A stretch of DNA of 64,000 bases from an uncultured Acidobacteriota bacterium. GTDB lineage: Bacteria > Acidobacteriota > Terriglobia > Terriglobales > Acidobacteriaceae. Every line of letters starts with the position of its first letter. Position 1 is the first letter of the stretch. Where the stretch lies: the NCBI GenBank assembly GCA_963735695.1, contig CAVTLV010000001.1, positions 855,458 through 919,457 of the forward strand, given 5' to 3'. Shown in pieces: positions 910-16,135 of the stretch. The notes under the pieces are model-generated. The model was not told where the DNA came from. It did not search any database and worked only from the letters and a program-made list of their open reading frames with translations. The position numbers and the translations under genes were made by a program.

Positions 910-3405
910 TCAGGAACCGGTGTAGAGCTGAAAGGGGGCCCAGTAAAACGGTTTATGGAAGGCGGTACTGGATCGAAGCAGCTTGAGCTTGGCATTCCGG
1001 AGAGCGGTGTCGGGAGTTTTTCCTTTTGCGAGTTCTCCGTAGAGTTCGTCCATCAGCTGGGGAGTGGAGACGTCGCTGACCTCCCACAAAGCACCGATCA
1101 CGTTGTGCGCTCCAGCGCGAAGAAATGCCCACGAAAGTCCTACGAGGCCTTCGCCGGTGTAGGCCCGTGAGCCTGCTCCGTAGCACGTCGAAATCGTGAC
1201 TAACTCTGCGTGTAACGGGTGATGAATGATGTCGCGGGCGTAGAGCTTGAAGGAATCGTCCTCGGGCCCAGACTTGGATAGTACGATGGCGGAGTCCAGC
1301 GGGCTGGTGCGACTGGCAGTCCCATGCGCAACAAAGTGAATGTAGGAAAACTGCTCCGGCTTGCCAGACAAATATGCCGTTGGCGTTGCACTATCGCGCG
1401 CGAATATTTTCTGTTGTGGTGGTGAGAAGTTTTTCTCGATACTTTCCATTTCCGCAGAGGCTTTCCGCAGTTCGGGATAATCCGGGTTCGGAGCAATAGC
1501 GTTCCCGAGCAAAAGCAAGCTGGGCGTGCGCTTGTCAGCCGCGCGAGAGGCTGCCAGCAGACGTAGCGAATTTGCATCAGCGATGGTAACGTCTTCAATC
1601 CAGTAGTGCGGAGTCGGGTCGGCAACGATTAAAGTCTCGAAGTTGAGAGTGTTCAGGCTGCCGTCGGGAATGATGATGACTTTCGCATTTTCTGCGAGCG
1701 AAGGTTTCGTCGGCATGACGAGCGTGCGGTAGAGCGTGCGTCCATCGTCATCGGCCGCTGGAAGGAATTCCTGTTGTTCAGAAAGCGCTTTGCGATAGCG
1801 GTGCACCACCGGATCGATTTCCGATTTCGGGGGCAGCGTGAACAAGCTGGTCTTTTTAGCGGTAATCACCCAGAGGTATGACTGCTTCTCGCCGAGCCAG
1901 TAAAAAAGAATCGTGCTGCCGGCGCGTCGTGCGATCTCCTGCGGGTTCAGAGCGACCGGCTTGAACGTGGTCCCTTTTTGCAAGAGACCCAAACCTTCTG
2001 CCAAGGTTCGACCACGACTGTATTCGGCCACTTGCAGAGCCTCTGTGGTCTTGCCTTTGCTCGCCAGGAAATGGATGTAGTCGTCGTAGATGCCGAGCGC
2101 GTTGGAAGGGAATGGCAACTGCAAAGCCTCGCCCTTCAGAGAAGATCGCGCTGTTTCGAAGGTGCTCAGAGCGGCACGATATTCGCGGTCTGCAGGCTGA
2201 GGCTGGTTCTCGTCTTCGTAGAGCTGCGCGAGGGAGTGCTCGGCCTCCCATTTCAAGAAGACGTGGCTCTTGGGATCCTGCTGAATCTCGCGATATATCT
2301 TCTCCGCTTGCTGAGTGTCGTGCATGCGGGCGGCGACGTGACCCTTGACCAGCAGGGGATAGAGCACATCAAGACGGTTGCCGTCTTTAGGAACGAGCGC
2401 GATGGTTTGATCGGCGTAATCGCGGGCTTGATCAAGCCTTCCCCTTCGCTCAGAGACCAAGGCTAGGGACACCAAAGCGTCGATGACATCTTGTTTGGTG
2501 GTTTGTTGTGCTAAGTCGAGAGCCTGCTTATAGTTTTGTTCGGCTTTCTCGAAGTCCTCCGCATCAAGATAGATATAGCCAGCGGTGGTGAGCCAGGTTG
2601 CCTCGTCAGTTGTTGCACCAATCTTCTGAGCGCGGTACCTCGCATCTACGAGCAGGGTTAGGGCTTTTTCGTGTTCTCCTAGTTTGTAATACGCCCAACC
2701 CTCATTGCCCAATGCGGTCTGAGCTATTCGCTCGGCTCCAATCGCCGCGGCCAGTTTGTAGGCGGCGTCGGACCAATCCATCGTCTCGTCATAGTGTTCT
2801 TGCTGCAATGCCGACCACCCAAGGTCCAACAATGCAGTGGCCTCCTTAAAGGAGCTGCTGTGCTCGCGGGCCATGATCAGAGCCTGGCCGAACAGACTCC
2901 GCGCTGCCATGAACCGGCCACGATTCATCTCCATCAAGCCGCGTTCCAGGGGTAAGTCGATGCAATCCGCGGAACTCGAGGTGCTGCAGAGTTGCTCGGC
3001 TTCCGAGAACTTTTTCTCAGCTTCGTCAAAATGTTGCAGGGAGCCATAAGCGGAACCCTCGAGCCGTGCCTTCCTTATCGCAAGGTCACCCGGCGGTGCA
3101 CTCTTCTCGGACGCTATAAGAGGTAGTACTCGATCATTCATTCCCCTCCACGAAAGCGCGTCTGCCTGCAAAAGCAGAAACCTCCAAGCCCACTCTGATC
3201 CACGATTGTGGAACTGTTTGTAGCCCGACTCTGCCTCTTGTTCAGCCTTGGCCACCTGCCCAGTTCGAAAGGAATGCATTGCGTGGTCAAAGGCGGATTG
3301 GGGATCGGGCTGTCGGCCGCAAGAAGGCGAAAAGGTGAGGAGGAAAGCCAACGACACGGATAGACAGAGGCTCGACTTGCCGCGCTGAAAGCGGGTTGCT
3401 TTCAA
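910..3405 (-). CDS. TPR-repeat protein with C-terminal CHAT (caspase-like) protease domain
   Basis: The C-terminal block IHFVAHGTA...LHAELVTISTCYGAGS...GLSWAFLRAGAHNVIGALW is typical of CHAT. It is preceded by about 500 aa of TPR-like helical repeats. The ORF-track start at 3723 would overlap the upstream gene by 289 nt. I place the start at in-frame TTG 3405, just before the hydrophobic segment SSLCLSVSLAFLLTF. The start is uncertain. Confidence 0.8.
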   Translation of the reverse strand: MKATRFQRGKSSLCLSVSLAFLLTFSPSCGRQPDPQSAFDHAMHSFRTGQVAKAEQEAESGYKQFHNRGSEWAWRFLLLQADALSWRGMNDRVLPLIASEKSAPPGDLAIRKARLEGSAYGSLQHFDEAEKKFSEAEQLCSTSSSADCIDLPLERGLMEMNRGRFMAARSLFGQALIMAREHSSSFKEATALLDLGWSALQQEHYDETMDWSDAAYKLAAAIGAERIAQTALGNEGWAYYKLGEHEKALTLLVDARYRAQKIGATTDEATWLTTAGYIYLDAEDFEKAEQNYKQALDLAQQTTKQDVIDALVSLALVSERRGRLDQARDYADQTIALVPKDGNRLDVLYPLLVKGHVAARMHDTQQAEKIYREIQQDPKSHVFLKWEAEHSLAQLYEDENQPQPADREYRAALSTFETARSSLKGEALQLPFPSNALGIYDDYIHFLASKGKTTEALQVAEYSRGRTLAEGLGLLQKGTTFKPVALNPQEIARRAGSTILFYWLGEKQSYLWVITAKKTSLFTLPPKSEIDPVVHRYRKALSEQQEFLPAADDDGRTLYRTLVMPTKPSLAENAKVIIIPDGSLNTLNFETLIVADPTPHYWIEDVTIADANSLRLLAASRAADKRTPSLLLLGNAIAPNPDYPELRKASAEMESIEKNFSPPQQKIFARDSATPTAYLSGKPEQFSYIHFVAHGTASRTSPLDSAIVLSKSGPEDDSFKLYARDIIHHPLHAELVTISTCYGAGSRAYTGEGLVGLSWAFLRAGAHNVIGALWEVSDVSTPQLMDELYGELAKGKTPDTALRNAKLKLLRSSTAFHKPFYWAPFQLYTGS

Positions 3406-3434
3406 ATAGGGAGATGAAATTTGCTGACTAGGGT

Positions 3435-4424
3435 CTATGTTCCGCCGCTGCCGCCTGCGCCTTTTCCGTTCACATTGCACGTCGCTAGCGACGCGCTGCC
3501 GGCCGCAAGGCAGCCCATTTCCAGGCGGATCATGGTGAGCTTGTACGAATTGTGATTCACCGTCAGCTCGGCGAGAAAGATGTTTCCGAAGTCGGGGATG
3601 TGAATCACGTGACCGTAGGATTTCGCTGGGGGTGGGATCTGAATGGACATCCCATCCGCAGCCTTCGCGCTGATGTTCTTGATCTCGACATTTTCGACCA
3701 ATGAACAAGTGATCCCGTCCCATTTACTGTCGCTCTTCCTTGCTGTACTCGCCTGATCCTGAATCTCAGCGTAGTTCAGATTGAAGCCATGATACTTCTT
3801 CGCCAGCAAACCGTCAGCGTCGGTGAGGCGCATTTTCTTCCGATCTTCTCCGGCCAACGATTCGAGAGTTTTTTTCAGCCTCTGGTACTGAGCCCCGACC
3901 GCGCTCATGAGGTCGGTCTTTTGATCGACGGACATCGCATCTTTGCCCGCAGGCCGTTGACCCGTGAGGTCAAGTTTCAGATAAGGCTCTGCTTTGTGGC
4001 GGGCGATCCTCAAATTCTCGAAATGCGTGCCCAGAAAAGTGACATGCGGAGAGTACTCCCCAGGGAAATGCGTGGTGGAGATTTGCGCAACGACCCGATC
4101 CGCCGTCACGACATTCAGAACATTCAAGTCCTCCACTACCGATGTCGCGAGCGTTACCGACGCACCCTCGTGCTTGTCGCTCGTGTGCCCTGAAACCTGC
4201 GTATGGGCAGCGGCGTAAGAAATGATTCCCTCCAGCCGAAAATCCTTCGCGTGCTGAGAGAAATAATTCCGTTGCGCCCGCTCTTCCTCGGGCAGGTCCG
4301 CAAGCTGACCCTCTAACTTCACGAAGGCCTGCTTCTTAATCTGCTCCTCAAACGGCAGTTTCAGCTTGCCGGCAAGGGCGTGAGCTTCCGCATGGAAATA
4401 ATGCGAGGTGCGATTGTCTTTCAT
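3435..4424 (-). CDS. hypothetical protein (329 aa), no recognisable motif and no signal peptide
   Basis: Long ORF with normal amino-acid composition. It sits 20 nt after the anti-sigma gene and about 30 nt before the CHAT gene, so it is in an operon position. The C-terminus is Gly-rich (NGKGAGGSGGT). Confidence 0.65.
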   Translation of the reverse strand: MKDNRTSHYFHAEAHALAGKLKLPFEEQIKKQAFVKLEGQLADLPEEERAQRNYFSQHAKDFRLEGIISYAAAHTQVSGHTSDKHEGASVTLATSVVEDLNVLNVVTADRVVAQISTTHFPGEYSPHVTFLGTHFENLRIARHKAEPYLKLDLTGQRPAGKDAMSVDQKTDLMSAVGAQYQRLKKTLESLAGEDRKKMRLTDADGLLAKKYHGFNLNYAEIQDQASTARKSDSKWDGITCSLVENVEIKNISAKAADGMSIQIPPPAKSYGHVIHIPDFGNIFLAELTVNHNSYKLTMIRLEMGCLAAGSASLATCNVNGKGAGGSGGT

Positions 4425-9513: not shown

Positions 9514-9896
9514 TTCTTTGTCCTAACCTCCACAACAGCATCCGATGGGACGGTCGTTCTTTGATGATGTCACAATTGGGAGGATTCCGACTATTGTAAG
9601 GTGTATCTGCAAGAATCGAGACCTCAGAATTAAGGTTGGGAACATCGCAAAACCCGTTTGCTTGCTGGCGGGAGGAAAGAGTAGAATTTCGGCCAAACCA
9701 GCCAACTGGCGGAGACTGACGTCCAATTTCCACCGGTTTTGATGAGCTACGCGAATGGGGGACGGCAGATGGAGAGTAGACCCTGCGAGTCGGCGCGTAA
9801 CTTGTTCTATCGACAAAAGACGGTTACATGGACGGGAAACCCTTACAGTGCTGCCCGGAGAACCTTTGGATCTCGCGAGCCGGTATTGGGCGAGCC

Positions 9897-12026
9897 ATGG
9901 AGTCAAGAATAATGAACGGGATTGCCGCGCGATCGCTCGGGTATGGTGCAGGAGTACTTACACTTGTGGTTTTGGGATGTATCCTCGCGGGACAAGCTGC
10001 AGGACCTGCGAAGCATCGAGTCTCGCTGCCGACGGACTGGAGTCACCGGCACGTCATCTTCTCGAACCCGACTACGGCCGAGGAGTACGCGCGGACCATC
10101 GACGAACCGCGCTACTGGCAGCAGATGTATCGGCGTAACTCCCCTGCGTCACTGGTCGCGATGGCGCCGCTCGCCAAGACTGCGCCTTCCAAATTTAAGG
10201 GAGCCCTGCATCGGGACTGGTCCGTGAGCCTTGGCAGTGGAGCCACCATGGGGCCGGGGAACTATCCCGCCAAATTTGGGTTTGATGTGACCACTGCCAG
10301 CTGTAGTGCGGATTACGTGGTGTACAGCACGGGGCTGGCGAGTTCGGGCACGCAGGCCAGTATTGTCGGATTTACGAATATCTACTCGGGATGCGCGGGA
10401 TCGCCGACCGTGAATTGGGCCTACGATACGGGGGGGCAAGTCCTTACGTCGCCGGTCACCTCACTGGACGGCGCTCAGGTGGCGTTTGTTCAGACTGATG
10501 GCGCAGCAAGGGGAACACTTGTCCTAATAAAGTGGGCCGGTTCCTCCGGATCGATTGGATCGCCGATCACTCTTACAAATCTGACGCCTGCGCAGTACCA
10601 GGCTTGCACGACACCCCCGTGCATGACCAAGCTCATCCTAAGGGATAATCTAGGTGTTGCTACCGATGATACAACTTCATCCGCTTTTTACGATTACAAG
10701 AACGACATCATCTGGGTCGGTGGCGCCAGGGGATGGGTGCACAAAATCACGGGAGTGTTCAAGGGAACTCCAATTGAAGTCATAACAGGTGGATTTCCTG
10801 TCCAGGTGTCGGCTGCACCCTGGACCTCAAGCGCGGTGTACGACCGGGTCTCGAACGATGTCTTCGTCGGTGACGCGCTGGGATTCGTTTATGCAGTGAA
10901 TGCCACGACTGGAGCGGTGACTGTTTCCGGGCAGTTGGATTTTGGAGCGGGCGTCGTGGACGCACCGATCATCGATCAGACCGGAGGCTTCCTCTATGTG
11001 TTCGCGTCGAGCGATAACAGTGGTTTATGCACAGCTGGCGTGAACTGTGCCGCTGTCTACCAACTCAGCACAACGTTTGCTAGCGGTGACACCGGAACCG
11101 AGGTCACCGTGGGAGACAGTGTTTTGAGTGCACCCCCAAATCCGAACCCTATGTACATTGGCGGATTCGACAGCGCCTACTTCAGCTCTGCGAATCGAAC
11201 AGGCAATCTTTATGTCTGCGGCAATACCGGGGCGATACCAACGCTGTACCAAGTTTCGGTCACAGCAGGCGCATTCCCGGGTACCGGTCTCGGAACTCCT
11301 TTTACTACGCTAGGCAAGACCGGATCCAATGCGGGGTGCTCTCCGGTTACAGATGTGGCCAACCCGAATACAACGGGCGGGCCTTCCGAGCGGGTGTTTG
11401 TCAGCGTGCAAGGCAGTGGTCTTTCCACGGCATGTTCTTCCGGGGGATGCATCATGAGCTTTCTTGACACGCCATGGAAGGCGAATACGGCGTATTCAAT
11501 CGGACAACAAGTTCTGAGTTCGCGGCGTCGCGTCGAGACAGTCATGACTGCAGGAACGTCGGGGGGTACAACCCCCGTGTGGACAAACTCCGCGGGTGCT
11601 AAGAAAACGGATGGCTCCGTGGTTTGGATAGATCAAGGGGCGCTTAACGCCACCACGATTCCTAGTTGGGTGGCTGGCCATACTTATATCGCTCCAACAA
11701 CCCGTATTATTGATTCGCTTGGCAACGTGCAGGTCTCCACTACCCCGGGCACTTCGGGACCGTCGGCTCCGGCTTGGAACACGACTCCCGGGGGCACAAC
11801 TCCTGATGGCACCGGCACGCTGGTTTGGACTAACGCCGGTCCCGTTGGCACTTTTGCATTGCCCTCAGCTGGCGGTACCAGTGGAATTATCGAGGATAAC
11901 GTTGTCTCTCCGTTAACCCAGGCGGGGGCTTCTCAGGTATACTTCACCACTCTGGGCAATCAGACTTGCGGAACTAGTGGGTCGGGGGGCTGCGCTGTGC
12001 AAGCCTCTCAGCCAGCTTTACAATAA
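9897..12026 (+). CDS. secreted PQQ-like beta-propeller repeat protein with two C-terminal Trp-rich repeats
   Basis: The N-terminal hydrophobic segment is GAGVLTLVVLGCILAGQAAG. Propeller-like blades are visible (VFVGDALGFVYAVNATTGAV, GFLYVFASS). The repeats are W..NTAY..GQQV...GTSGGTTPVWTN...DGSVVWIDQG and W..GHTY.....GTSGPSAPAWNT...DGTGTLVWTNAG. The start could be 9828, 9897 or 9912. Confidence 0.6.
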   Translation: MESRIMNGIAARSLGYGAGVLTLVVLGCILAGQAAGPAKHRVSLPTDWSHRHVIFSNPTTAEEYARTIDEPRYWQQMYRRNSPASLVAMAPLAKTAPSKFKGALHRDWSVSLGSGATMGPGNYPAKFGFDVTTASCSADYVVYSTGLASSGTQASIVGFTNIYSGCAGSPTVNWAYDTGGQVLTSPVTSLDGAQVAFVQTDGAARGTLVLIKWAGSSGSIGSPITLTNLTPAQYQACTTPPCMTKLILRDNLGVATDDTTSSAFYDYKNDIIWVGGARGWVHKITGVFKGTPIEVITGGFPVQVSAAPWTSSAVYDRVSNDVFVGDALGFVYAVNATTGAVTVSGQLDFGAGVVDAPIIDQTGGFLYVFASSDNSGLCTAGVNCAAVYQLSTTFASGDTGTEVTVGDSVLSAPPNPNPMYIGGFDSAYFSSANRTGNLYVCGNTGAIPTLYQVSVTAGAFPGTGLGTPFTTLGKTGSNAGCSPVTDVANPNTTGGPSERVFVSVQGSGLSTACSSGGCIMSFLDTPWKANTAYSIGQQVLSSRRRVETVMTAGTSGGTTPVWTNSAGAKKTDGSVVWIDQGALNATTIPSWVAGHTYIAPTTRIIDSLGNVQVSTTPGTSGPSAPAWNTTPGGTTPDGTGTLVWTNAGPVGTFALPSAGGTSGIIEDNVVSPLTQAGASQVYFTTLGNQTCGTSGSGGCAVQASQPALQ

Positions 12027-12039
12027 GACCGAGACTTCT

Positions 12040-12204
12040 ATGAATACAGACGATTCGACCTCTGAGCAGCCCCGCGTTTCCGTTGCGAAAAAGCCGTACG
12101 AGAAACCGGCCTTCCGCTACGAGCAGGTTTTTGTGACAACGGCTCTGGCGTGCGGCAAAATCTCGACGAGCTCCGCCTGCCTGCACGTGGGAAGCGCTTC
12201 ATGA
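12040..12204 (+). CDS. candidate RiPP precursor peptide (54 aa)
   Basis: The peptide is MNTDDSTSEQPRVSVAKKPYEKPAFRYEQVFVTTALACGKISTSSACLHVGSAS. It is below the ORF-track length cutoff when read from its internal ATG. It starts 14 nt after the previous stop. Its TGA overlaps the ATG of the next gene (ATGA at 12201-12204). The Shine-Dalgarno signal is weak. Confidence 0.55.
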   Translation: MNTDDSTSEQPRVSVAKKPYEKPAFRYEQVFVTTALACGKISTSSACLHVGSAS

Positions 12205-12668
12205 CTGTTTCCGAGCACGGGCAGGACCTTGCCCACGCTCTCAAGTGTGATCTGGCCAGCGAGACCTTGCGCGCCTCCGGTCGTTTGCGGCTGCGCGTAA
12301 CCGGTTGGAGCATGCTTCCGACCATCTGGCCTGGGGATACGCTTGAGTTAGAGGGGACCCGGCGCGACGAGCTTTCTGCGGGCGATATTGTGCTGTTCAG
12401 TCGGGATCGCCGCCTGTTTGCCCACCGCCTATTGAAAGCCAGCGGAAACGGGATCGTCACGCACGGGGATGCGATGCTCCGACCCGACCCGGTCGTCACA
12501 GAAAGCGAAGTGCTTGGCCGTGTCGCATGCATCGTGCGCAACGGCAAATGCATTCTGCCGAGCAAGACCTTGTCGCTTTCAGAACGTACCGTCGCGGGGG
12601 TTGCACGGTCCTCGGAATTCGGCGCCCGCTTCATTGTGGGGATACACGGTCTGCTTCACGGTAAGTAA
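12201..12668 (+). CDS. S24/S26-family peptidase, ER/archaeal (SipW/Sec11-like, Ser-His) type
   Basis: GWSMLPTIWPGDTLEL contains the Ser nucleophile box. GDIVLFSRDRRLFAHRLL carries HR where bacterial P-type SPases and LexA have KR, which is the S26B pattern as I recall it. The gene is translationally coupled to the small ORF. Confidence 0.65.
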   Translation: MTVSEHGQDLAHALKCDLASETLRASGRLRLRVTGWSMLPTIWPGDTLELEGTRRDELSAGDIVLFSRDRRLFAHRLLKASGNGIVTHGDAMLRPDPVVTESEVLGRVACIVRNGKCILPSKTLSLSERTVAGVARSSEFGARFIVGIHGLLHGK

Positions 12669-12696
12669 GACCACCTTAGAATCGATCGAGATTTTC

Positions 12697-13512
12697 TTGC
12701 CTCAGTTGACCACAGACGTCGAGCGCCTCAGCCTCGTAATTGAGATCGGGGGCATGGGTGTGCGCGTGAATACGGCAGACTCGAATTTCCTGGAAATGCT
12801 GCAGTGTCGATATACGGGCTTCGTGAGTGATTCGGACGGGGCTGAAGTTGAATTCGATGTCGAGCTCATCAACCCGGGCGATGGCGATGATGATGCACCG
12901 GTCGAAGTGAAGCATCAGCGCGGCGCGTGGTCATTCCGGCGGGGCGATTTTCTTGCGGAGTGGCAACCGGCCTCGCAACGCGGATGGATTCGGCAGTCGG
13001 CGAACCCGTACTCGATTGATGCGGTGCTGCGCATTGTTCACACGCTGGTGCTGGCCAGGCAGGGAGGGTTCCTGCTGCATTCGGCCAGCGCGATCCGCAA
13101 CGGGAAAGCGTTCCTGTTTGCCGGAGTATCGGAGGCGGGTAAGACGACCATATCGCGACTGGCGCCGTCGGACGTCACGCTTCTTACGGACGAGATTTCG
13201 TATGTGCGAAAGTGCGATGACGGGTACATTGCATTTGGTACTCCTTTCACAGGAGAATTGGCCAAGCTCGGCGAGAATGTTTCGGCTCCGATCGCTGCCC
13301 TCTACTTACTGGCCAAGGGAAGCGAAAATCGAATTGATCCGGTACCGCCCGGCGAGGCGGCGCGCGCCCTGCTTGCGAATCTATTGTTTTTCGCGGAGGA
13401 TGAGGAGCTGGTGCAAGCCACTTTTCATGCCGCGTTTGAGTTTGTGAGCCGTGTACCAGTTTGGCGGTTGACCTTCTTCCCCGATGCACGGGTTTGGGAG
13501 TTGATTCGATGA
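12697..13512 (+). CDS. HPr kinase-like (HprK-related) serine kinase
   Basis: LHSASAIRNGKAFLFAGVSEAGKTTIS contains a Walker A motif (GxxxxGKT) in the context typical of HprK C-terminal-like kinases. The start is ambiguous: TTG 12697, TTG 12706 or ATG 12754. The ORF-track start at 12469 would overlap the peptidase gene. Confidence 0.65.
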   Translation: MPQLTTDVERLSLVIEIGGMGVRVNTADSNFLEMLQCRYTGFVSDSDGAEVEFDVELINPGDGDDDAPVEVKHQRGAWSFRRGDFLAEWQPASQRGWIRQSANPYSIDAVLRIVHTLVLARQGGFLLHSASAIRNGKAFLFAGVSEAGKTTISRLAPSDVTLLTDEISYVRKCDDGYIAFGTPFTGELAKLGENVSAPIAALYLLAKGSENRIDPVPPGEAARALLANLLFFAEDEELVQATFHAAFEFVSRVPVWRLTFFPDARVWELIR

Positions 13513-13811
13513 GTAGCCTTTATGTGGCCCGCAATCCGCGAGTGGCGGCGCGCAGCCTCGACGGCGAGATGATGATCATGTCGGGGCGGGACTCGACATT
13601 ATTTACCCTGAATAAGACCGCAACCATCCTATGGCAAGCGGCCGACGGGGCAACTCCGCTCGAAGAGATCGTGCAGCAAAAGATCTGCACAGAATTTGAG
13701 ATTGAGCCCGGTGAGGCACTGCGAGACGCTGAGACCTTGGCGCGGGACCTTGCCAGCCACGGAATCCTGCATATATCCGAAGAACCAATCGTCCGCGGAG
13801 AGTCGAAATGA
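13509..13811 (+). CDS. PqqD-family peptide chaperone (RRE-type)
   Basis: SLDGEMMIMSGRDSTLFTLNKTATILWQAADGATPLEEIVQQKICTEFEIEPGEALRDAETLARDLASHGIL fits the PqqD pattern. There are ATGA overlaps at both ends (13509-13512 and 13808-13811). Confidence 0.8.
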   Translation: MSSLYVARNPRVAARSLDGEMMIMSGRDSTLFTLNKTATILWQAADGATPLEEIVQQKICTEFEIEPGEALRDAETLARDLASHGILHISEEPIVRGESK

Positions 13812-14935
13812 ACGGGTTGCTCGAGCATATGACCGAGAAGGCGCTGGCGCGGAACATCCCACTCAGCGTGCAACTCGATTTGACCTATCGCTGCAACGAA
13901 CGGTGCGTTCATTGTTATCTCGACCACGAAGATCATGGCGAGATGACGACGGCGGAGATCAAACATTTGCTGGACGAGATGGCGGACGCCGGAGTCTTTA
14001 TCTTGACGCTGAGCGGCGGCGAGATTTTTCTGCGCAAAGACTTCTTCGAGATTCTCGAGTACGCGCGGCTCGAGCGGCAATTCTGCGTGAAGCTCAAGAC
14101 CAATGCGATCATGATCCATGAGCGCCAGGCTGCGAAGATCCGGGACATTGGGGTGGAGTCGATCCAGATCAGCATCTACTCCCACAGGCCGGAGGTGCAT
14201 GATGCGGTCACGCTGGTGCCAGGATCATTGCAGAGATCATTGGACGCAGCGCGGTTTCTGAAGTCGCAAGGACTGCGGGTGATCTTTGCGAACGTGCTGA
14301 TGGTGCAGAATCTGCAAGATTACCAGGGCGTAAGGGCGCTGGCAGAGGAAGTCGGGGTCGAGTGTACCTTGGACCCGACCATCACCCCCATGATGGATGG
14401 CGACCGCTCGGTGTTGAGCATGGGGCTGAAACAGGAAGCGTTGCGCCAGGTATTTCGCGATAAGGAGCTGGTCGGGGATGTGGACGAGTTTTGTACGGTC
14501 GCCGCTCCTGCCGATGAAAACGAGCTGTCAGCTCTGCCATGCAGCGCAGGACATACGACCTGTTACGTGTCGCCTTATGGCGATGTGTTTCCGTGCGTGC
14601 AGTTTCCGATTCCGACTGGAAATGTGAGGAACGAGCGGTTCGTCGACATTTGGCGGTACTCGGAGCGAATGAACGAAGTGCGCTCGATCCGCCTGAAGGA
14701 CCTGACGACCTGCACGTCTTGCTCACACGTCGGGAGTTGCACGCGGTGTCCAGGGCTGGCATTTATGGAGGGCAATATGCGCGGGCCGTCATCGCAGGAT
14801 TGCGAGAAGTCTTTTGCGCGCACAGGAATTCCATCAGCTAATATGCTGGCGAAGAAGCAGGCGTCACGCGATCTGGTGCAGATCCGCATAATGCCGGGCA
14901 ACTCGGCAAGTCAACCCACCGGCGCAATTGCATGA
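13808..14935 (+). CDS. radical SAM enzyme with C-terminal SPASM domain
   Basis: LTYRCNERCVHCY is the CxxxCxxC motif. The SPASM-type Cys clusters are CSAGHTTCYVSPYGDVFPCVQFP and CTSCSHVGSCTRCPGLA. Confidence 0.85.
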   Translation: MNGLLEHMTEKALARNIPLSVQLDLTYRCNERCVHCYLDHEDHGEMTTAEIKHLLDEMADAGVFILTLSGGEIFLRKDFFEILEYARLERQFCVKLKTNAIMIHERQAAKIRDIGVESIQISIYSHRPEVHDAVTLVPGSLQRSLDAARFLKSQGLRVIFANVLMVQNLQDYQGVRALAEEVGVECTLDPTITPMMDGDRSVLSMGLKQEALRQVFRDKELVGDVDEFCTVAAPADENELSALPCSAGHTTCYVSPYGDVFPCVQFPIPTGNVRNERFVDIWRYSERMNEVRSIRLKDLTTCTSCSHVGSCTRCPGLAFMEGNMRGPSSQDCEKSFARTGIPSANMLAKKQASRDLVQIRIMPGNSASQPTGAIA

Positions 14936-14968
14936 GCAGTTCTCAGGAGCAGTATTCCGATCGGAAAT

Positions 14969-16135
14969 ATGCCAGGAAGTTCTGCGCCGCTTGAGACCGA
15001 GTGGTCTTTGTTGCGGGCTGCGTGTGCCGATGTTCCTCCTGCACAGAAAACCGCTCGAATTCGTAAGTTATTAGATTCTCAGATTCGCTGGGATTCTCTC
15101 CTTAGTCTCGCGGAAAATCACGGGGTGCAACCGATTCTTGCACGATCCCTCATGAGTTTCGAGGATCAGATTCCTGCCCAAGCGCTCATCGCTCTAAAAC
15201 AAAGTTATCAGGCAAATCTTCACAAAGCTCTCTTGCTATCAGGTGAATTTGTTCGTGTGGTTGACAAGTTGTCGGAGGCTGGAATCGAATTCATTCCCTA
15301 TAAGGGTCTGGCTTTGGCGGAGACCATCTACGGGGACATTGCGTTGCGCCAAGCCGGCGATATCGATCTCCTGATTCATGCGGCAGATCTGAAGCGCATC
15401 CAGGAAGTGATGGGGAAGATCGGTTACGTGCTGCAATTGAATTTTTCGGAAGACGAAGAAGCGGCATACATAAAGTCTGGGTACGAGTGCGCATTCGACG
15501 GTGCAGCAGGAAGGAATTTGCTGGAGGTCCAATGGGCGATTGAGCCACATTTTTATGCGGTAGATGTTGATCTTGAAGGACTATTCCGCAGGGCGCAGAC
15601 GGCAAGGGTTATGGGCTTAGACACAAAGTCGTTGTCACCGGAGGACCTCTTTGTAGTACTGGGTTTGCATGCGGCGAAGCATGTATGGGGACGGCTGATC
15701 TGGTTATGCGACCTGGAGCGGATCAGCAGGCTGCCGCTAAACTGGAAAAGGATCGTTGAGCACGCGCAGCAACTGGGTGTAGTGCGAATTCTTTGCGTTA
15801 CGCTACTGCTTGCAGAAAGACTGCTCGGCTCTCCTTGCCCGGCATTGGCCGCGGAAAATCTTCCCAAGGATTCAGCAGCTGAACCATTGGCGCAGGAGAT
15901 CGAAACATACATTTCAAACGATAAGACATACGATGTTGAGTCGCTCGCGTACTTCCGCCTGATGCTGAGATTGCGAGAACGGCGCATCGACCGTATCCGA
16001 TTTGTTAGCCGATTTGTATTTACGCCAGGGCCCGGCGAGTGGGCGGTGATGCGACTCCCGAAACTTCTATTTCCGCTATACCGGGTGTTGAGACTTACTC
16101 GCCTAGTCGGCAGAATAGTCAGTGGCCGGGTCTGA
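14969..16135 (+). CDS. nucleotidyltransferase family protein (PF14907 / NTP_transf_5-like)
   Basis: The N-terminus (WDSLLSLAENHGVQPILARSL) and the GDIDLLIHAADLKRIQEVMGKIGY block are typical of the uncharacterised nucleotidyltransferase family found in lasso-peptide clusters. Confidence 0.6.
   Translation: MPGSSAPLETEWSLLRAACADVPPAQKTARIRKLLDSQIRWDSLLSLAENHGVQPILARSLMSFEDQIPAQALIALKQSYQANLHKALLLSGEFVRVVDKLSEAGIEFIPYKGLALAETIYGDIALRQAGDIDLLIHAADLKRIQEVMGKIGYVLQLNFSEDEEAAYIKSGYECAFDGAAGRNLLEVQWAIEPHFYAVDVDLEGLFRRAQTARVMGLDTKSLSPEDLFVVLGLHAAKHVWGRLIWLCDLERISRLPLNWKRIVEHAQQLGVVRILCVTLLLAERLLGSPCPALAAENLPKDSAAEPLAQEIETYISNDKTYDVESLAYFRLMLRLRERRIDRIRFVSRFVFTPGPGEWAVMRLPKLLFPLYRVLRLTRLVGRIVSGRV

Follow-up and report, generated by a model that had tools for sequence, protein, structure and literature searches.

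A probable ribosomal peptide operon of Acidobacteriaceae with a predicted ScmC-family kinase, a radical-SAM/SPASM enzyme, and a precursor ending in serine

INTRODUCTION

In phosphorylated lasso peptide systems, kinases phosphorylate the C-terminal serine of the precursor (PMC8498205), and in the pseudomycoidin system the nucleotidyltransferase PsmN, whose residues D134 and D136 are essential, is required for the hexose on the phosphoserine (PMC6993621). The substrate of the lasso kinases is the precursor with its leader still attached, the kinases depend on a YxxPxL motif in the leader, and BsfK, which phosphorylates the internal residue Ser3, is strongly accelerated by BsfB1, a PqqD-like recognition element (RRE) for peptides that are made by the ribosome and modified after translation (RiPPs) (PMC10368454). 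In this study we analyzed a 64,000-nucleotide stretch of contig CAVTLV010000001.1 (positions 855,458 to 919,457 of the forward strand; here called the window) from an uncultured bacterium of the Acidobacteriaceae, in which genes for a kinase-like protein, a PqqD protein, a radical S-adenosylmethionine (radical-SAM) enzyme with a SPASM domain, and a small peptide ending in serine lie together. An earlier note on this DNA had invoked the lasso background, namely a kinase acting on the C-terminal serine and, in pseudomycoidin, a nucleotidyltransferase-like partner decorating the phosphate, and the published work agrees with that account (PMC8498205, PMC6993621).

The operon resembles the phosphorylated lasso systems (paeninodin with PadeK, ThcoK, SyanK, PsmK/PsmN, and BsfK) in that a P-loop kinase-like protein with the catalytic motif H...GxSGxGK[ST]...D[DE] adjoins a PqqD-type RRE, and it shares with them a YxxPx-hydrophobic leader motif, a precursor ending in serine, and an optional nucleotidyltransferase. 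By analogy, the expected substrate of its kinase would be the precursor that still carries the leader. Instead of the cyclase and the B2 protease of lasso clusters, the operon encodes a radical-SAM/SPASM enzyme together with an S24/S26 Ser/His peptidase. The window cluster contains neither an Asn-synthase-like lasso cyclase nor a transglutaminase-like B2 protease, as is also true of the 81 related loci described below, and it is therefore not a lasso cluster. The kinase differs as well, since the window protein appears to belong to the Pfam family ScmC and not to Hpr_kinase_C, and its similarity to the lasso kinases is confined to the catalytic core.

ScmC-family proteins occur together with a PqqD homologue and radical-SAM/SPASM enzymes in the SynChlorMet (SCM) cassette (NCBIfam TIGR04248-04250, PF27840), which consists of ScmC, ScmD (PqqD), and ScmE and ScmF (radical-SAM/SPASM) and was reportedly described by bioinformatics by Haft and Basu in 2011. 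In contrast to this cassette, the window cluster has one radical-SAM enzyme instead of two, scores far below the equivalog cut-offs, and adds a recognizable precursor, the S24/S26 peptidase, a PF14907 protein, and a beta-propeller protein. The maturation systems of sactipeptides and ranthipeptides (SkfB, AlbA, CteB) likewise pair a radical-SAM/SPASM enzyme with an RRE to modify a core that contains Cys, a likeness suggested here by sequence. Unlike in those systems, the RRE is a separate protein, and a kinase, a nucleotidyltransferase, and a Ser/His peptidase are added. With HPr kinase/phosphorylase (HprK/P) and ATP-dependent phosphoenolpyruvate (PEP) carboxykinase the kinase-like protein shares the P-loop fold and a His and an Asp at equivalent positions, but it is much shorter than PEP carboxykinase.

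A literature search yielded nothing that links such a kinase to a radical-SAM peptide, a C-terminal serine, or Acidobacteria, and "HPr kinase" and "SPASM" were never mentioned together. For PF14907 the search returned an unrelated phosphonate context only, and the literature on RRE mining mentioned neither kinases nor Acidobacteria; no chemistry was found for the SCM cassette or for this cluster, nor any description of the cluster's product. As the co-occurrence of ScmC, PqqD, and radical-SAM/SPASM proteins is encoded in NCBIfam and Pfam, the bare combination is already catalogued, though bioinformatically only. The earlier note knew of no description of the combination, which agrees with the search result for a link of such a kinase to a radical-SAM peptide or a C-terminal serine but not with the catalogued trio. 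We regard the cluster as uniting known RiPP modules in an undescribed combination that makes a sharply testable prediction.

RESULTS AND DISCUSSION

A probable RiPP operon with a predicted C-terminal phosphorylation step

The plus strand of the window carries a densely packed operon with the gene order beta-propeller protein, precursor peptide, peptidase, kinase-like protein, PqqD, radical-SAM/SPASM enzyme, and PF14907 nucleotidyltransferase. Three junctions (precursor/peptidase, kinase/PqqD, and PqqD/radical-SAM) are formed by 4-nt ATGA overlaps, suggesting translational coupling. The genes named in the earlier note are all present and intact on the plus strand with the identities and positions it had assigned, and the precursor ending in GSAS that it had picked out is encoded by an open reading frame (ORF) for 54 residues in the same operon (12040-12204, + strand) with the sequence MNTDDSTSEQPRVSVAKKPYEKPAFRYEQVFVTTALACGKISTSSACLHVGSAS. 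This system is best explained as a RiPP biosynthetic operon whose family occurs commonly in Candidatus Sulfotelmatobacter as well as in other Acidobacteriaceae.

In the pathway that we propose, PqqD would bind the 54-residue precursor via the leader sequence KKPYEKPxF and present it to the radical-SAM/SPASM enzyme, which would cross-link the core of 17 to 19 residues, most likely through two invariant cysteines. PqqD would also present the precursor to the ScmC-family kinase for ATP-dependent phosphorylation of the hydroxyl group of the C-terminal Ser54. Where it is present, as in the window, the PF14907 nucleotidyltransferase may further decorate the phosphate in the way PsmN does in pseudomycoidin, and the Ser/His peptidase of the S24/S26 type would cut off the leader near the invariant junction A-L-x/C (the slash marks the predicted cut). 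For these five steps with phosphorylation of the C-terminal serine, in which we infer the chemistry and its sequence, where the leader is cut, and what the beta-propeller protein does, we see an even chance of being correct. The best-supported prediction appears to be the C-terminal phosphorylation, which is proposed because of the terminal serine in 185 of 185 precursors, the Ser or Thr in 15 of 17 distant ones, the fold and motifs of the kinase, the synteny, and the analogy to the lasso kinases.

Synteny was analyzed in a locus scan that used one genome per species and found at least 560 species-level loci, of which 80 were kept. All 80 come from metagenome-assembled genomes of Candidatus Sulfotelmatobacter, Acidobacteriaceae, or Terriglobia. 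A further locus, L001, is a copy of the contig stretch of L079 and was added to the kept ones, giving the 81 loci counted here. Kinase, PqqD, and radical-SAM genes occur together in all 81, with the PqqD gene and one radical-SAM/SPASM gene immediately 3' of the kinase gene, accompanied by the peptidase gene in 79, the beta-propeller gene in 65, and the nucleotidyltransferase gene in 60. Because the three genes are together in every locus and the gene set recurs in reordered form in distant relatives, the arrangement is far beyond chance.

The C-terminal serine is invariant among homologous precursors

The precursor leader contains KKPYEKPAF, a lasso-like YxxPx-hydrophobic motif, and is followed by an invariant A-L-x junction and the predicted core CGKISTSSACLHVGSAS, the C-terminal serine of which is invariant among homologues. 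Serine is the last residue of all 120 precursor homologues taken from the protein database and likewise of all 77 precursors that a hidden Markov model recovered from the window and from most of the loci, the window's own included. When both sets were merged, 185 distinct precursors were obtained, in which the terminal serine, Cys1, Lys3, and Ala(-3) are present in all 185, and Cys2 and Leu(-2) in 184 each. Serine accounts for 14% of the variable core positions of these precursors versus 100% of the terminal ones, and the residues before the terminal serine vary freely (SAS, KVS, KAS, KTS, and others). The earlier note had made its proposal dependent on the conservation of this serine, and the residue is conserved in all 185 precursors. 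As the terminal serine is also kept in kinase-bearing loci without the nucleotidyltransferase gene, it tracks the kinase and not the nucleotidyltransferase. A degenerate precursor that has lost the second cysteine is found in L029.

More distant relatives were obtained by a metagenome scan seeded with family members 32-35% identical to the window kinase, which yielded 36 contigs. These loci (kinase 32-44% identical) contain the same gene set in other orders, such as kinase-PqqD-radical-SAM-precursor(s)-peptidase (L097 among them), PqqD-radical-SAM-precursor-kinase-peptidase-PF14907 in L108, and precursor-PqqD-radical-SAM-kinase-peptidase-PF14907 in L113, with PF14907 confirmed by Pfam in the latter two. 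Their precursors retain Y-x-K-P in the leader and L-x-C at the junction, and the last residue is a Ser or a Thr in 15 of 17 cases (8 Ser, 7 Thr), the two exceptions being L109 and L113. That Ser and Thr replace each other suggests that what is conserved is the side-chain hydroxyl, as a kinase requires.

Two of the distant loci show peculiarities of the precursor gene. L097 carries three tandem precursor genes 3' of the radical-SAM gene (2937-3677), the cores of which differ and all end in Thr. The L113 precursor gene (2545-2710) has an in-frame TGA codon after ...LICGKA, and readthrough would add AVTCPMMITIS, restoring the second cysteine and the terminal serine. The TGA could reflect a sequencing error, a pseudogene, or recoding; a reading as selenocysteine was rejected, as the downstream hairpin was not significant (z -1.05).

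The kinase-like protein probably belongs to the ScmC family

The kinase-like gene (12697-13512, + strand) starts with TTG and encodes 271 residues, a length equal to that of the homologues. The local copy of Pfam, which does not include the model PF27840, gave zero matches for this protein, and its identity is based on the precomputed PF27840 (ScmC) match, weak NCBIfam matches, a structure model, and sequence motifs. Its relatives number more than 6,600 at 90% clustering, the best 120 of which are 77-94% identical and all have a precomputed PF27840 match. An exhaustive search among representatives at 50% identity found 9,315 relatives with E <= 1e-3, of which 188 reach E <= 1e-30. In 36 diverse family members there was no match to Hpr_kinase_C (PF07475) at E <= 0.1, and 29 matched PEPCK_ATP weakly in Pfam. 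The NCBIfam models ScmC and HprK-related kinase A matched all 36 (best E values 4.5e-15 and 2.2e-11, respectively), and HprK-related B matched 32. Against the ScmC equivalog model TIGR04249 the window kinase scores 34.7 bits (cut-off 125), and it appears to be a member of the same broad ScmC family but not an SCM equivalog.

The family profile aligns to Thermus PEP carboxykinase over the segment His...GLSGTGKTT. An AlphaFold model of the window kinase, for which an alignment of 59 sequences down to 55% identity was used, had a pLDDT confidence score of 88.9. When searched with Foldseek, it gave ATP-dependent PEP carboxykinase as the best match (E ~1e-9), followed by HprK/P (1kkl, 1kkm, 3tqf) with E ~1e-4 and a target TM score of ~0.5; a single-sequence search of the PDB returned nothing relevant. 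The catalytic motif consists of His128, the P-loop G143-V-S-E-A-G148-K149-T150, and D165-E166, with the spacing of the lasso kinases kept within one residue. In BsfK numbering, the conserved lasso-kinase motif comprises H148, G163, G166, G168, K169, S170, D186, and D187; in BsfK and other lasso kinases the residues H148, G163, K169, S170, D186, and D187 matter, and the G166A variant of BsfK differs little from the wild type (PMC10368454). With a profile made from 11 published lasso-kinase sequences, this ORF was the best six-frame match in the window (E 1.8e-6), and identity over the catalytic core of ~55 residues is 44% to BsfK, 43% to PsmK, 32% to ThcoK, and 31% to PadeK (46% between BsfK and PsmK); as these comparisons use a short partial alignment machine-read from a supplement, they are supportive rather than decisive.

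The protein is thus most likely an ScmC-family P-loop protein with a modeled PEP carboxykinase/HprK fold and is predicted to be a precursor kinase. Of the label "HprK-like kinase" given in the earlier note, the fold and the lasso-kinase catalytic motif stand, but the protein is not a bona fide HprK and appears to belong to the broad ScmC family (PF27840). A bona fide HPr kinase/phosphorylase was rejected, as there is no match to PF07475 or TIGR00679 and no HPr or phosphotransferase system context, and PEP carboxykinase ranked above HprK/P. The idea that HprK-related A is the lasso kinase family was dropped as unconfirmed.

The rank of PEP carboxykinase, which came first both in Foldseek and in profile searches, and the P-loop glutamate of this clade would also agree with a PEP carboxykinase-like small-molecule phosphotransferase or a non-catalytic scaffold. 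We regard this as very improbable: with 271 residues the protein lacks most of the substrate-binding regions of PEP carboxykinase, its His, P-loop, and Asp-Glu motifs agree with peptide kinases in residues and spacing, its gene keeps a strict linkage with the precursor, RRE, and leader peptidase genes across shuffled gene orders, and its N-terminal ~80 residues are swapped along with the precursor.

Partner proteins of the predicted kinase

The PqqD-family RRE (13509-13811, + strand; PF05402, E 4e-12) has its best NCBIfam matches among the lasso PqqD chaperones, all below cut-off, and the sequence Y-E-K-P-A-F of the precursor leader resembles the YxxPxL motif recognized by lasso RREs. The radical-SAM/SPASM enzyme (13808-14935, + strand; PF04055, E 2e-22; PF13186, E 3e-10) contains the cluster motif CNERCVHC and a SPASM domain and is encoded in the same operon as PqqD and the precursor. 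It falls below every curated family cut-off. The best NCBIfam match is the mycofactocin maturase MftC (2e-40), and among solved sequences the sactisynthase SkfB (2.5e-11) and PqqE (6.7e-6) are nearest. Because of the two invariant core cysteines, thioether formation is the simplest guess for its reaction, and the sequences suggest that it probably cross-links the core via these cysteines.

The soluble S24/S26-type peptidase (12201-12668, + strand; Peptidase_S24, E 2.6e-6; sigpep_I_arch, E 8e-9) has the motifs GWSMLP and AHRLL of a Ser/His dyad. GxSMxP is conserved, and the second catalytic position is occupied by His in every matched homologue and never by Lys. Its best NCBIfam match is the archaeal-type signal peptidase I, and as it has no obvious membrane anchor, it was assigned as the leader peptidase with the predicted cut near the invariant junction. 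A strict AxA signal-peptidase rule for this cut was rejected, as it fails in distant clades, some of which have K, Q, or I at position -1.

The nucleotidyltransferase (14969-16135, + strand) matches PF14907 (NTP_transf_5) over the full length of the model (E 7e-57; 193 bits, cut-off 31.2; model positions 2-249 of 249) and has a conserved metal-binding (DxD) motif, GDIDLL, to which D134/D136 of PsmN correspond. No match was found in a PDB sequence search with this protein. PsmN, which we take to be a PF14907 member, would be its counterpart in the proposed pathway.

Evidence against the proposed pathway and possible other fates of the terminal residue

Several observations weigh against the proposed pathway. 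Of the 81 loci, 21 lack the nucleotidyltransferase, as do several distant clusters, yet the terminal Ser or Thr persists. It is thus an accessory tailoring enzyme and not an obligate partner of the kinase, with which the earlier note had paired it. All NCBIfam matches of the kinase family fall below the curated cut-offs, making it remote kin of the characterized peptide kinases, and its closest structural match is PEP carboxykinase and not HprK/P. The second P-loop glycine is replaced by Glu146 (GVSEAGKTT, kinase residues 144-147, window 13126-13137) in 73 of ~118 close homologues, the others having Gly, and this conservation marks the replacement as a trait of the clade and not a lesion. One distant precursor (L109) ends in ...TRSA and not in Ser or Thr, and no exporter is encoded in the conserved core of the cluster. 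With a precursor core of 17-19 residues containing ~27% Ser/Thr and BsfK acting on an internal serine, the phosphosite could lie elsewhere. Finally, the distance from Cys2 to the C terminus is 7 in 141 of 184 precursors, with a range of 6-9, and such tight spacing would equally suit a cross-link to the terminal residue.

The main rival explanation takes up this constrained spacing. The terminal Ser or Thr would be the acceptor of a ranthionine- or sactionine-type thioether that the radical-SAM enzyme forms from Cys2, giving a C-terminal macrocycle, and the kinase would act on another Ser or Thr or elsewhere. Cys-Thr thioethers occur in ranthipeptides, and the radical-SAM enzyme is nearest to the thioether-forming SkfB. 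The targeting of internal Ser3 by BsfK (PMC10368454) also agrees with this explanation. However, it offers no reason for a kinase in every locus, the sole invariant hydroxyl residue available to the kinase is the terminal one, and the characterized precursors with a C-terminal serine beside such kinases are all phosphorylated there (PMC8498205), so that we consider a thioether at the terminus unlikely.

Phosphorylation of the terminal residue could also be a transient activation in the style of class II-IV lanthipeptides, followed by elimination to a dehydro residue and then either by attack of Cys2, giving a lanthionine-like ring, or by hydrolysis to a C-terminal amide. Kinase-then-elimination chemistry is established for lanthipeptides, and both the interchange of Ser and Thr at the terminus and the invariant cysteine at a fixed distance would suit this route. 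Its chance is slight all the same: Pfam and NCBIfam reveal no phospho-lyase or cyclase domain in the cluster, the radical-SAM enzyme would be unneeded, and in the lasso systems with a homologous kinase the phosphate is retained (PMC8498205).

The beta-propeller gene and a replaceable block

The beta-propeller-like protein (9828-12026, + strand) was identified from the ORF list and a weak Beta-prop_ACSF4 match and has about 710-730 residues, the exact start codon being uncertain. It has an N-terminal hydrophobic anchor or signal, and searches with it gave no match in the PDB and no cofactor family above threshold. The gene lies directly upstream of the precursor gene in 65 of the 81 loci. A homologue is kept despite rearrangement, upstream of the radical-SAM gene in L084 and downstream of it in L085, and the gene is lost jointly with that of the precursor in L014, L022, L024, L026, L034, L054, and L082/L083 (L082 is a more distant variant), where kinase, PqqD, and radical-SAM genes, and usually those of the peptidase and the nucleotidyltransferase, are retained. 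The gene is therefore considered a member of the cluster. In the distant clusters L088-L121 no homologue was detectable. The loci without a precursor gene either have it elsewhere in the genome or are decaying.

Loss and exchange affect a hypervariable block (10124-12939, + strand) that comprises most of the beta-propeller gene, the precursor and peptidase genes, and the first ~80 codons of the kinase gene. DNA of the closest genomes, L030 among them, is ~88% identical on both flanks but has zero alignment over window positions 10124-12939 (compare L027), and in L054 positions 9701-12900 are cleanly deleted. The substrate-side half of the cluster thus evolves as a replaceable block, a pattern that suggests cassette replacement or diversifying selection as in competition or recognition loci.

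The persistence of the beta-propeller gene through rearrangements and its loss together with the precursor also bear on a further explanation, in which the product is a peptide-derived ligand or cofactor for the beta-propeller protein, comparable to pyrroloquinoline quinone or mycofactocin, and the kinase and nucleotidyltransferase build a phospho- or nucleotidyl handle. This would agree with MftC and PqqE-like proteins as the best curated matches of the radical-SAM enzyme, with the PqqD partner, and with the lack of a dedicated exporter. We nevertheless hold it to be improbable, as the core is hypervariable except for four positions, unlike cofactor precursors, and as the beta-propeller protein, with its N-terminal anchor or signal, gave no cofactor-family match above threshold and has no detectable homologue in the distant clusters.

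A bolder extension of the proposed phosphorylation is a new RiPP class, a radical-SAM-cross-linked peptide with a C-terminal phosphoserine or phosphothreonine that PF14907 would extend to a phosphodiester-linked sugar or nucleotide and that would serve the co-varying beta-propeller protein as a strain-specific signal, toxin, or ligand. We put this forward tentatively and hold it to be less likely than not. Such a partnership would explain why the genes of the beta-propeller protein, precursor, and peptidase and the part encoding the N-terminal domain of the kinase are swapped or lost as a block between near-identical genomes.

We know of no retained side-chain phosphorylation in finished ribosomal peptides other than lasso peptides. 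If true, the C-terminal phosphorylation predicted here would place the logic of a kinase, with or without a nucleotidyltransferase, on a second, unrelated scaffold, making it a tailoring module portable between RiPP classes, and would open a first route to the function of the large ScmC family, which comprises over 9,000 clusters at 50% identity. This phosphorylation is directly testable by co-expression and mass spectrometry.

Distribution and genomic context

The cluster, which is widely harbored by soil Acidobacteria, occurs very commonly in Candidatus Sulfotelmatobacter and in related Acidobacteriaceae; the genome loci recovered here all come from metagenome-assembled genomes. Four loci (L003, L017, L041, L028) carry the labels Candidatus Binatus, Verrucomicrobiia, and Candidatus Solibacter, but have the same synteny and a kinase identity of 75-81% (71% in L041), like the Sulfotelmatobacter loci. 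These contigs are probably mis-binned, and horizontal transfer is less likely.

Upstream of the operon lies a glycogen phosphorylase gene, and downstream follow a convergent major facilitator superfamily (MFS) transporter gene, a LacI regulator gene, and sugar-utilization genes. The nucleotidyltransferase gene (+) and the convergent MFS gene (-) share 33 nt at their 3' ends (window 16103-16135). Such MFS-LacI-MFS sugar genes were found only beside the locus type that contains the nucleotidyltransferase gene; ~20 loci that lack it altogether occupy another chromosomal site, and in L064 unrelated genes follow the radical-SAM gene. A promoter and terminator scan of the window gave no signal above shuffled controls, no second, paralogous cluster was found within the 64 kb, and a search for defense systems with PADLOC returned no match.

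Some of the distant loci contain additional genes of the same kinds. In L095 (2305-5346) and in the upstream regions of L091 and L122, a second, more divergent kinase-like gene or a further radical-SAM or PqqD-like gene lies beside the main kinase gene, which recalls the two radical-SAM enzymes of the SCM cassette and the paired HprK-related A and B kinases. Polysaccharide genes adjoin the cluster in three unrelated lineages, L084 (9334-14816), L108 (234-4213), and L113 (7336-9555), and encode Wzy_C, Poly_export/SLBB, Wzz/GNVR tyrosine-kinase-like, and heparinase II/III-like proteins. The proximity of glycan genes in these three lineages and of the glycogen phosphorylase and sugar genes in the window may be coincidence or may reflect a link with surface glycans.

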